6,654 nucleotides of DNA from a virus (Duplodnaviria > Heunggongvirae > Uroviricota > Caudoviricetes), in the IMG/VR virus record IMGVR_UViG_2713896788_000026. One strand, given 5' to 3'. Shown here piece after piece: positions 6,480 to 6,607 of this stretch (position 1 is its first letter; every line of letters begins with the position of its first letter). Under the pieces are notes generated by a model, which was not told the DNA's origin, did no database searches, and was given only the letters and a program-made list of their open reading frames with translations. The position numbers were made by a program, and so were the translations under genes.

Positions 6480-6607
6480 GCAAATGTTAACTGCTGCCTG
6501 GTTAACATTTGCTGAAAAAGCCTGTTAACATTTTTTCCGCACAACAAACTGAATAATAAAGATAAAAACCGCAAAAATGCCCGGGCAGCCAGTTAACATG
6601 TTAACTG
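6480..6607. promoter_or_regulatory. Cluster of GTTAAC-centred inverted repeats upstream of terS; candidate protein-binding sites (terminase recognition or operator sites)
   Basis: GTTAAC at 6486-6491, 6501-6506, 6524-6529, 6592-6597 and 6600-6605. Perfect 12-bp inverted repeat GCAAATGTTAAC (6480-6491) / GTTAACATTTGC (6501-6512) with 9-bp spacer. Third GTTAACATTT at 6524-6533. Perfect 18-bp palindrome CAGTTAACATGTTAACTG at 6590-6607, flanked by GGGCAG / CTGCCC. Confidence 0.45.

Follow-up and report, generated by a model that had tools for sequence, protein, structure and literature searches.

Phage lambda's cohesive-end site (cos) is arranged in the order cosN, I2 with its A-tracts, R3, the I1 bend, R2, and R1, followed by Nu1 (PMC4856287). 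In HK97, the best-studied phage with an HNH-type cos, the site lies between the HNH gene and the small terminase gene, terS, and the small terminase (TerS) requires no more than one site of 15 bp (+15 to +29), which has an A-tract (PMC11331095). Packaging in SPP1 and SF6 is of the headful (pac) type; no motif is common to pacL and pacR, and recognition is presumed to be structure dependent (PMC4856287). Among satellites, EcCICFT073 keeps the cosN of its helper and has its own cosB, which is read with the help of Rpp (PMC6739421), and the cos-carrying staphylococcal pathogenicity islands (SaPIs) use HNH phages by copying the helper cos (PMC6092414); the TerS of SaPIs is a further example of switched packaging specificity. 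Here we describe a cluster of GTTAAC-centered palindromes upstream of terS in a stretch of viral DNA of 6,654 nucleotides (Caudoviricetes; IMG/VR record IMGVR_UViG_2713896788_000026), the whole of which is called the window below. The cluster is most likely a cosB-like array of sites that TerS would bind, located in the cohesive-end site of a group of Stx phages, and the TerS encoded at 5846..6409 is the proposed reader of the repeats. The array has apparently not been described in the searchable literature, where only the cut sequence is reported. The kind of element is familiar from cosB-like arrays, lambda/21-style specificity variants, and satellite piracy, and it is an expected component of a cos phage.

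The array resembles lambda cosB in that short (here putative) TerS elements stand on the terS side of the nick and in the succession of A-tract, site, AT-rich and (here presumably) bendable spacer, further sites, and terS; lambda cosB spans about +50 to +170, compared with +32 to +159 here. The proteins are unrelated, however, since gpNu1 is a winged helix-turn-helix protein whereas the TerS of the window is of the Terminase_2/SF6 type. Lambda also has 12-nucleotide 5' overhangs and no HNH partner, in contrast to the predicted 10-nucleotide 3' overhang and adjacent HNH gene of this module, and the sites described here are palindromic hexamer-based octamers that partly form inverted pairs. Homology to lambda cosB proper was rejected because of the TerS type and because the reported ends are 3'; the array would work like a cosB without being a member of that family. 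With HK97 the locus shares the order HNH, cos, terS, terL, a (here predicted) 10-nucleotide 3' overhang, and an A-tract about 12 to 30 bp inside the left end. Unlike this locus, HK97 has a TerS of a different sequence family, no multicopy array, and a terS that starts at +50, and its left end had no sequence similarity to the window region. The module shares with SF6 and SPP1 G1P the same N-terminal DNA-binding fold (4zc3; Terminase_2) and multiple sites near terS, but it differs in having a discrete repeated motif beside a cos site.

Organization of the repeat cluster and position of the virion ends

GTTAAC starts at six positions of the window (5016, 6486, 6501, 6524, 6592, and 6600), five of which fall within 6486-6605; the expected total was 0.72, and none of 200 dinucleotide-preserving shuffles reached six. 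The five clustered copies all lie in a common octamer, ATGTTAAC, in the orientations +, -, -, -, + on the + strand of the window, and this octamer had no further copies outside the cluster in 8.9 kb of an identical prophage. The five-copy cluster, its 12-bp inverted repeat, a third copy, and an 18-bp palindrome had been noticed in an earlier, sequence-only reading of the window, and every coordinate was reproduced by a repeat finder. That reading also held that GTTAAC occurs only once elsewhere, inside terL, which is the case, and that the context there is similar, which is not: the copy at 5016 sits in GGGTTAACCATGG and lacks the extended motif. The cluster region is AT rich, as claimed, with 38% G+C compared with 57% for the window, and it does lie 5' of terS, which like its neighbors is a minus-strand gene and starts at 6409.

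The array consists of an inverted pair, a single site, and a second inverted pair of ATGTTAAC half-sites. Site pair A (6590..6607, unstranded; +32 to +49) is a perfect 18-bp palindrome, CAGTTAACATGTTAACTG, made of two inverted ATGTTAAC half-sites. It is followed on the minus strand by a T-rich 56-bp spacer (6534..6589; +50 to +105) with the core CTTTATTATTCA....GTT (about 6561-6542) and by the single site B (6524..6533, minus strand; +106 to +115), which reads AAATGTTAAC and was picked out by the repeat finder as a copy of GTTAACATTT, also present at 6501-6510. Site pair C (6480..6512, unstranded; +127 to +159) has the structure GCAAATGTTAAC, 9 nucleotides (CAGGCAGCA), GTTAACATTTGC and contains a 12-nucleotide perfect inverted repeat with arms at 6480-6491 and 6501-6512 and a 9-nucleotide spacer. 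The center-to-center spacings of the sites are 8, 68, 23, and 15 bp.

The position of the virion ends comes from a close relative. Zhang et al. sequenced the virion DNA of the Stx1 phage Lys8385Vzw, and PhageTerm classified it as a cos phage with 3' cohesive ends of the sequence CGCCCCCCCT (PMC7946995). Lys8385Vzw differs from the window at 2 positions in about 250 bp of this region; its record (MT225100) ends with ...GGACACCGCCCCCCCT and begins with CTCACGCAGAGAAAAAATTCCCG... (CTCACGCAGAGAAAAAATTCCCGTTTCAGGGCAGTTAACATGTTAACTGG...), and its genome start is 31 bp before the palindrome. By homology, the cos cleavage interval of the window would be 6639..6648 on the minus strand, with the 10-nucleotide 3' cohesive end CGCGCCCCCT, and position 6638 would be the first of the left genome end (CTCACGCAG...). 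Counted from this predicted left end, the repeats span +32 to +159, between the cut and terS, which starts at +230. An HNH gene is found immediately upstream of the cos region and terS-terL, ending about 290 bp before terS, and the 10-nucleotide 3' overhang between HNH and terS is assigned by homology with Lys8385Vzw only. The sequence-only reading had listed small-terminase recognition in a cos or pac region among several candidate roles; the cos part of this proposal is well supported by the position of the ends, motif conservation, covariation with the TerS N-terminal domain, and two kinds of satellites, and the pac part is not. A pac site of the SPP1/SF6 type was rejected on two grounds: cos ends are defined in the relative, and the locus includes an HNH gene as a partner. 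Membership in the SfI/SfV cos family was likewise rejected because the overhang differs (TGCCCGCCCC).

Between the predicted cut and site pair A lies a conserved left-end block (6608..6638, minus strand; +1 to +31), CTCACGCAGAGAAAAAATTCCCGTTTCAGGGCA, with an A6 tract at +12 to +17; CACGCAGAGAAAAAA is the conserved block that precedes the array region. The left-end block hardly varies across 21 prophages from other enterobacterial genera, all of the Escherichia coli lineages, and satellites with a different TerS. This pattern suggests that the shared TerL/HNH nuclease machinery, and not the TerS specificity domain, probably reads the block, or else that it serves as a structural A-tract.

Conservation of the sites and covariation with the TerS DNA-binding domain

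Divergent lineages of the region were obtained via TerS homologues and BLAST. In an alignment of three lineages, namely, the window, locus L219, whose TerS is 69% identical, and a satellite copy with 80% identity at the DNA level, 37 of the 38 motif columns were invariant, compared with 41 of the 95 other columns between the first and the last site (Fisher p = 7e-10), and a five-lineage alignment gave the same pattern of conserved motifs and diverged spacers. Polymorphism was assessed in about 32 copies of the region from viral contigs (93.6-98.9% identical to the window region), comprising 26 unique variants; no motif position was polymorphic (0/38), compared with 35 of 251 other intergenic positions (p = 0.007). 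These comparisons indicate that the motifs are under purifying selection, and conservation in related elements is what the sequence-only reading had proposed as a check. The T-rich spacer at 6534-6589 is held in length to within about 2 bp and keeps a TTAT.ATTCA core in four of five lineages, the remainder having diverged. Lambda I1 (PMC4856287) provides an analogy by which the spacer may form a bend or be an IHF-like site; ATTCAGTTTGTTG matches the IHF consensus WATCAANNNNTTR with two mismatches, a weak match given a background of 0.32 such matches per 100 bp. Site B does not vary among the window, L219, L223, and satellite lineages, and the arms of pair C are conserved in all lineages together with the spacer core GGCAGC; L219 and L223 have one extra GTTAAC at pair C. 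The 80 bp from the last site to terS are unrelated between lineages.

The terS gene (5846..6409, minus strand) encodes a protein of 187 amino acids, with a GTG start, an GGGAGGAGG ribosome-binding site, and a match to Pfam Terminase_2 over residues 2-57 (E 4.5e-8). In the AlphaFold model of TerS, residues 1-56 have a per-residue confidence (pLDDT) of >90 and form helices at 4-14, 19-25, 33-41, and 44-56. The best fold match of this N-terminal domain was the DNA-binding domain of the SF6 small terminase (4zc3; target-normalized TM-score of 0.84, root mean square deviation of 1.6 Å), and a search of the TerS sequence against the PDB gave nonsignificant matches only (E 0.3-0.7).

Three observations connect the motif to this domain. 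In L220-222 (TerS P0023) and in the partly sequenced L218 (TerS P0030), every site is changed alike to ATGTTTAY: the palindrome of the P0023 lineage reads TATAAACATGTTTATA, the single site B in L220 and L218 reads AAATGTTTAT (AAATGTTTATACC), and the inverted pair reads AAATGTTTAC-agggcagcg-GTAAACATTT, with symmetric arms (GTTTAC...GTAAAC) in both loci. The corresponding TerS proteins, P0023 and P0030, read KSARCKGSQL where those of ATGTTAAC lineages read KTARVKGSQL and P0032 (L219 lineage) reads KTARVKGSRL, so that exactly the two TerS proteins of the ATGTTTAY lineages carry T32S and V35C. Residues 32 and 35 are predicted to lie at the start of a putative recognition helix (33-41). The two halves of TerS vary separately. 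Phages of other genera, whose sites are GTAAAC/GTTAAC, have TerS proteins that are 69-76% identical to that of the window in the N-terminal domain and 31-41% identical in the C-terminal domain, whereas the satellite TerS proteins P0053, P0063, and P0077 are 62-73% identical in the C-terminal domain and 47-53% identical in the N-terminal domain. The motif types pair with the N-terminal domains accordingly: ATGTTAAC with KTARVKGSQL, ATGTTTAY with KSARCKGSQL, and AAGTTACAC with the satellite N-terminal domain (KGWQL). The motif type thus goes with the N-terminal and not with the C-terminal domain, which means that it follows the DNA-binding part of TerS, and the cut-site block presumably follows the shared nuclease machinery. 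Two features of a cosB-type region are thereby found at this locus, which has several short motif copies conserved as DNA on the terS side of the predicted nick and a motif specificity that covaries with the TerS DNA-binding domain.

Satellite elements carrying the site

The sites also occur in elements that lack the phage packaging genes. In E. coli 2021CK-00607 (NZ_CP104665.1, about 3237650-3247050; L086/L089), an integrase-bearing island of ~10 kb is inserted between cspD/yljB and clpS and contains genes for an integrase, a helix-turn-helix regulator, an Icd-like protein, DUF4222, a RepA-type helicase, a protease/capsid fusion, and a 93-amino-acid protein, with no terS, terL, or HNH gene. 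The cut-site block is found at one end of the island along with the full set of five GTTAAC sites (overall identity of 80%), and the match to the phage breaks off directly behind the last of them (pair C). The capsid fusion of the island had no BLASTP similarity to that of the phage. This TerS-less version was present in 50 complete E. coli genomes, including that of strain 042. The island looks like a satellite that uses the terminase of this phage type, and since a helper-dependent satellite must carry cos, its copied sites fit a cos role.

A second kind of satellite brings its own TerS. The islands of the P0053/P0063 group contain either a D5-type primase gene, small open reading frames, cos, terS, and a capsid-like gene or AlpA, cos, and terS. 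The two islands examined (P0053 and P0063) retain the cut-site block, which is then followed by AAAAGTTACAC repeats: L212 has two tandem AAAAGTTACAC copies, and in L215, GTTACA stands at six sites, some in either orientation, the first of them being followed by a T-rich spacer; this locus has 13 GTTACA overall, compared with 1.5 expected. The satellite TerS proteins (L212-L214, L215-L217) are chimeric, with a helper-like C-terminal half and a different N-terminal DNA-binding domain. The 93-amino-acid proteins of L212 and the TerS-less island share 88% identity, and the two packaging strategies are thus found among related elements. As in EcCICFT073 and the SaPIs, both an altered cosB with its own DNA-binding protein and a copied helper cos are found here. 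The helper differs, being an HNH/Terminase_2 Stx-phage module rather than lambda or phi80, and unlike in EcCICFT073, respecification is by a full TerS homologue with a helper-like C-terminal domain rather than by an Rpp partner.

L215 has a second cluster of four GTTACA at 2076-2187, about 100-200 bp downstream of the satellite terS, which could be a second terminase-binding region, and two more GTTACA inside terS (1684-1719). At the end of the L212 segment (3440-3489), there are four closely spaced, iteron-like GTGACA repeats (aGTGACAtaccGTGACggagaGTGACAaccaGTGACAcaa).

Relatives in other genera and origin of the array

The relatives of the module in other genera comprised 21 prophages from Salmonella, Kluyvera, Atlantibacter, Erwinia, Serratia, Enterobacter, Kosakonia, Pantoea, Citrobacter, and others; they were found by a contig search with a TerS alignment, a search with a single TerS having given none. 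Their TerS proteins are 33-48% identical overall to that of the window. About 100 bp upstream of terS are almost invariant among them (GGGGGGG...CTGGACACCGCGCCCCCTCTCACGCACAGAAAAAATTCCCCTCTGGAGGGTGTAAAC), and terS starts right after this block with ATGTTAACA, encoding Met-Leu-Thr. In these relatives, ATGTTAAC is the ancestral start of terS, and the palindrome of the window is the homologue of GTAAAC|ATGTTAACA, that is, (GTAAAC)ATGTTAAC, overlapping the start codon. Codons 2 and 3 are TTA ACA in 20 of the 21 loci while most of codons 4-11 vary synonymously, which suggests that GTTAAC is constrained as DNA. The E. coli lineage has gained about 190 bp between the palindrome site and a new terS start, GTGCTGACA, that has its own ribosome-binding site, and the added DNA carries three further ATGTTAAC copies, which may have arisen by duplication of the terS 5' end. 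Most of the relatives in other genera have one site pair only.

Other GTAAAC copies occur around the predicted cut. L003 and L006-L022 have a conserved GTAAAC(AT) ~28 bp upstream of it (-73 from the terS start), a copy that the window lineage does not have. A GTAAAC (GTTAAC in L022 and L023) is also kept inside terS at +219 to +243, mostly at +222, where it forms Val-Asn codons in a variable linker. These upstream and intragenic copies may be additional TerS sites flanking the cut.

The ancestral start codon inside the palindrome opens a 24-codon open reading frame (ORF) in the window (6599-6525, minus strand) with a very hydrophobic product, MLTGCPGIFAVFIFIIQFVVRKKC*, and a stop codon within the next ATGTTAAC copy; L219 has an ORF of equal length at 305-379 with a different sequence, MLTTFSTVFCFFSFIIHIVMMEKC*. 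Two further mini-ORFs, MLTGFFSKC* and MLTRQQLTFAA*, begin at the next two ATGTTAAC copies. All of these are probably by-products of the T-rich spacer and of the motif, which can be read as A-ATG-TTA-AC or AAA-TGT-TAA. A 57-codon ATG ORF (6303-6476, minus strand) begins after the last GTTAAC (ATGAGACGCCGG...) and overlaps the terS start out of frame; it is probably spurious, because the DNA just upstream of terS is unconserved between lineages.

Proposed packaging mechanism and specificity

Late in infection, oligomeric TerS would bind the ATGTTAAC sites through its N-terminal helix-turn-helix domains. Bending or wrapping of the T-rich 56-bp spacer would allow the first pair and the distal sites to engage one TerS assembly. 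TerL and HNH could then be anchored on the conserved GC-rich block ~30-40 bp upstream and introduce staggered nicks that leave 10-nucleotide 3' overhangs, after which packaging would proceed from the terS-proximal end through terS and terL into the prohead. The physical binding of TerS, the wrapping or bending of DNA, and any role of IHF are inferred, and the direction of packaging is suggested by analogy with lambda and HK97.

Several points weigh against reading the cluster as a TerS-bound array. The contact between TerS and the sites rests on inference from sequence, and the ends, called by PhageTerm on the relative Lys8385Vzw, are transferred by homology. By the precedent of HK97, the A-tract block (+1 to +31) could be the essential element and the GTTAAC array an accessory. 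One site pair suffices in most of the relatives in other genera, and given this and the single site of HK97, the distal sites may be accessory enhancers. The spacings have no simple helical phasing, and the symmetric change of the arms in L220 would also be required by a hairpin. Finally, the lineages are few and related, and the covariation rests on about three independent motif classes.

More tentatively, and with somewhat more doubt than belief on our part, the five sites together with TerS residues 32, 35, and 38 (two or three of them) may form a tunable packaging-specificity code with at least three groups, ATGTTAAC, ATGTTTAY, and AAGTTACAC. Such a code would split the common HNH-type prophages of E. 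coli and their satellites into specificity groups, and concerted switching of the sites and TerS would decide which coresident prophage or satellite is packaged. Satellites would either copy the code, as in the TerS-less island, or have a rewritten version of it, read by a chimeric TerS that can still dock on the helper TerL.

The location of cos and the bases that the terminase is likely to read provide a handle for predicting the virion ends of these phages, for designing cos-plasmid or transduction assays, and for predicting which coresident prophages and satellites a given terminase can package. They also help explain how satellites exploit, and possibly interfere with, the spread of Stx phages. 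The natural variants, ATGTTAAC with Val35/Thr32 and ATGTTTAY with Cys35/Ser32, are a ready specificity-swap pair for TerS proteins of the Terminase_2 type, a class in which sequence recognition is still poorly understood.

Alternative explanations

The alternative that survives best, though very unlikely itself, is that the sites are operators for another dimeric protein, either the DUF3950 (YlcI/YnfO) protein or a host factor such as IHF or Fis, with a role in late-gene regulation or DNA organization. In its favor are the palindromic form of the sites, the location of a DUF3950 gene beside HNH in the phage together with a gene of YlcI/YnfO annotation in the TerS-less satellite, and a match of the palindrome to the IHF consensus with two mismatches, which is near background. 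However, no sigma-70-like promoter facing terS was found, in agreement with the sequence-only reading, which could not pick out a convincing one; the sole match, which the motif itself makes up, is on the + strand and faces away from terS. The late genes of lambdoid phages are read through from pR' under Q antitermination. The role as a late-operon operator that had been suggested for the sites is further disfavored by the TerS-less satellite, which keeps them at the end of the element with no gene following. In addition, the motif changes with the TerS N-terminal domain in satellites that share host and helper, and the palindrome is retained in Salmonella phage FSL SP-016, where there is no DUF3950 gene in the vicinity.

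It is highly improbable that the cluster is nonfunctional debris, consisting of duplicated 5' ends of the ancestral terS (ATG TTA ACA...) that were left when the ~190 bp were inserted or duplicated. Such an origin would account for the start of terS in the 21 relatives exactly at ATGTTAACA, the position of the palindrome, for the resemblance of the present start, GTGCTGACA, to a degenerate copy of ATGTTAACA, for the similarity of copies 3 and 2 to ATGTTAACAG(G/C)GCAG, and for the decay of the old ribosome-binding site from GGAGGG to CAGGGC. Although the copies could plausibly have originated by duplication, it is implausible that they are neutral: the motifs have stayed constant between diverging spacers, a concerted change has affected every copy in one clade, and the satellite without terS keeps all five.

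An action at the RNA level, in which inverted-repeat hairpins or upstream ORFs at each ATGTTAAC tune the translation of terS or the stability of its mRNA, has an equally small chance of being correct. The 12-nucleotide arms and 9-nucleotide loop of pair C would give a stable hairpin, arm changes in L220 and L218 are compensatory, and mini-ORFs (MLT...) begin at the forward copies and have their stop codons within the copy that follows. Yet the RNA fold of the whole region is unremarkable (z = -1.4), Rfam gave no credible match (mir-214 scored 15 bits, the gathering score being 67), the 18-bp palindrome lacks a loop, and the unpaired site B changes together with the paired sites. The TerS-less satellite keeps the sites with no downstream gene, and the 24-codon ORF is broken there (MLTA*); moreover, the motif type follows the TerS DNA-binding domain.

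The sequence-only reading also suggested a terminator for an upstream gene whose stop codon might lie in the 18-bp palindrome. Both parts of this suggestion, an intrinsic terminator and a gene end at the cluster, can be set aside as next to impossible, for although inverted repeats do occur downstream of HNH, no terminator-like site was found in 6200-6654, neither repeat is followed by a T-run on either strand, terS transcription must cross the region, and no annotated gene stops in the palindrome, the HNH gene stopping upstream at window-equivalent position 6699 (~45 bp past the window end and ~90 bp upstream of the palindrome).

Neighboring genes and insertions

The window is the minus-strand packaging module, or late region, of a long-tailed lambdoid Stx prophage, with 100% identity to Stx2a_WGPS6 and 99% identity to phages 2851 and BP-4795. 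In the direction of transcription, the gene order is HNH, the noncoding gap of about 290 bp, terS, terL, a protease/capsid fusion, and portal. The upstream HNH endonuclease has 121 amino acids (PF01844, E 5e-6), and terL (5849..4188, minus strand) encodes TerL_ATPase and TerL_nuclease domains. Just past the window and divergent from HNH is a small gene of the DUF3950 (YlcI/YnfO) family (L001 5307-5534, + strand in that locus); a gene with the YlcI/YnfO family annotation is also found in the TerS-less satellite. The module is present in many Stx1 and Stx2 converting phages, and 1287 of 5426 complete E. coli genomes, about a quarter, carry the 289-bp gap, often more than once and with up to 7 copies per genome, most of which are >95% identical.

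Insertion sequences were found in the region in three cases. In PPompW prophages, ISEc20 (IS110 family) abuts the G-run right after HNH (window-equivalent about 6688); in strain Ec-U3, an IS66-family element splits the 9-bp spacer of the inverted pair (window-equivalent about 6496); and in strain TB354, IS1A lies 55 bp upstream of terS (window-equivalent about 6464). All three insertions probably disable or alter cos.

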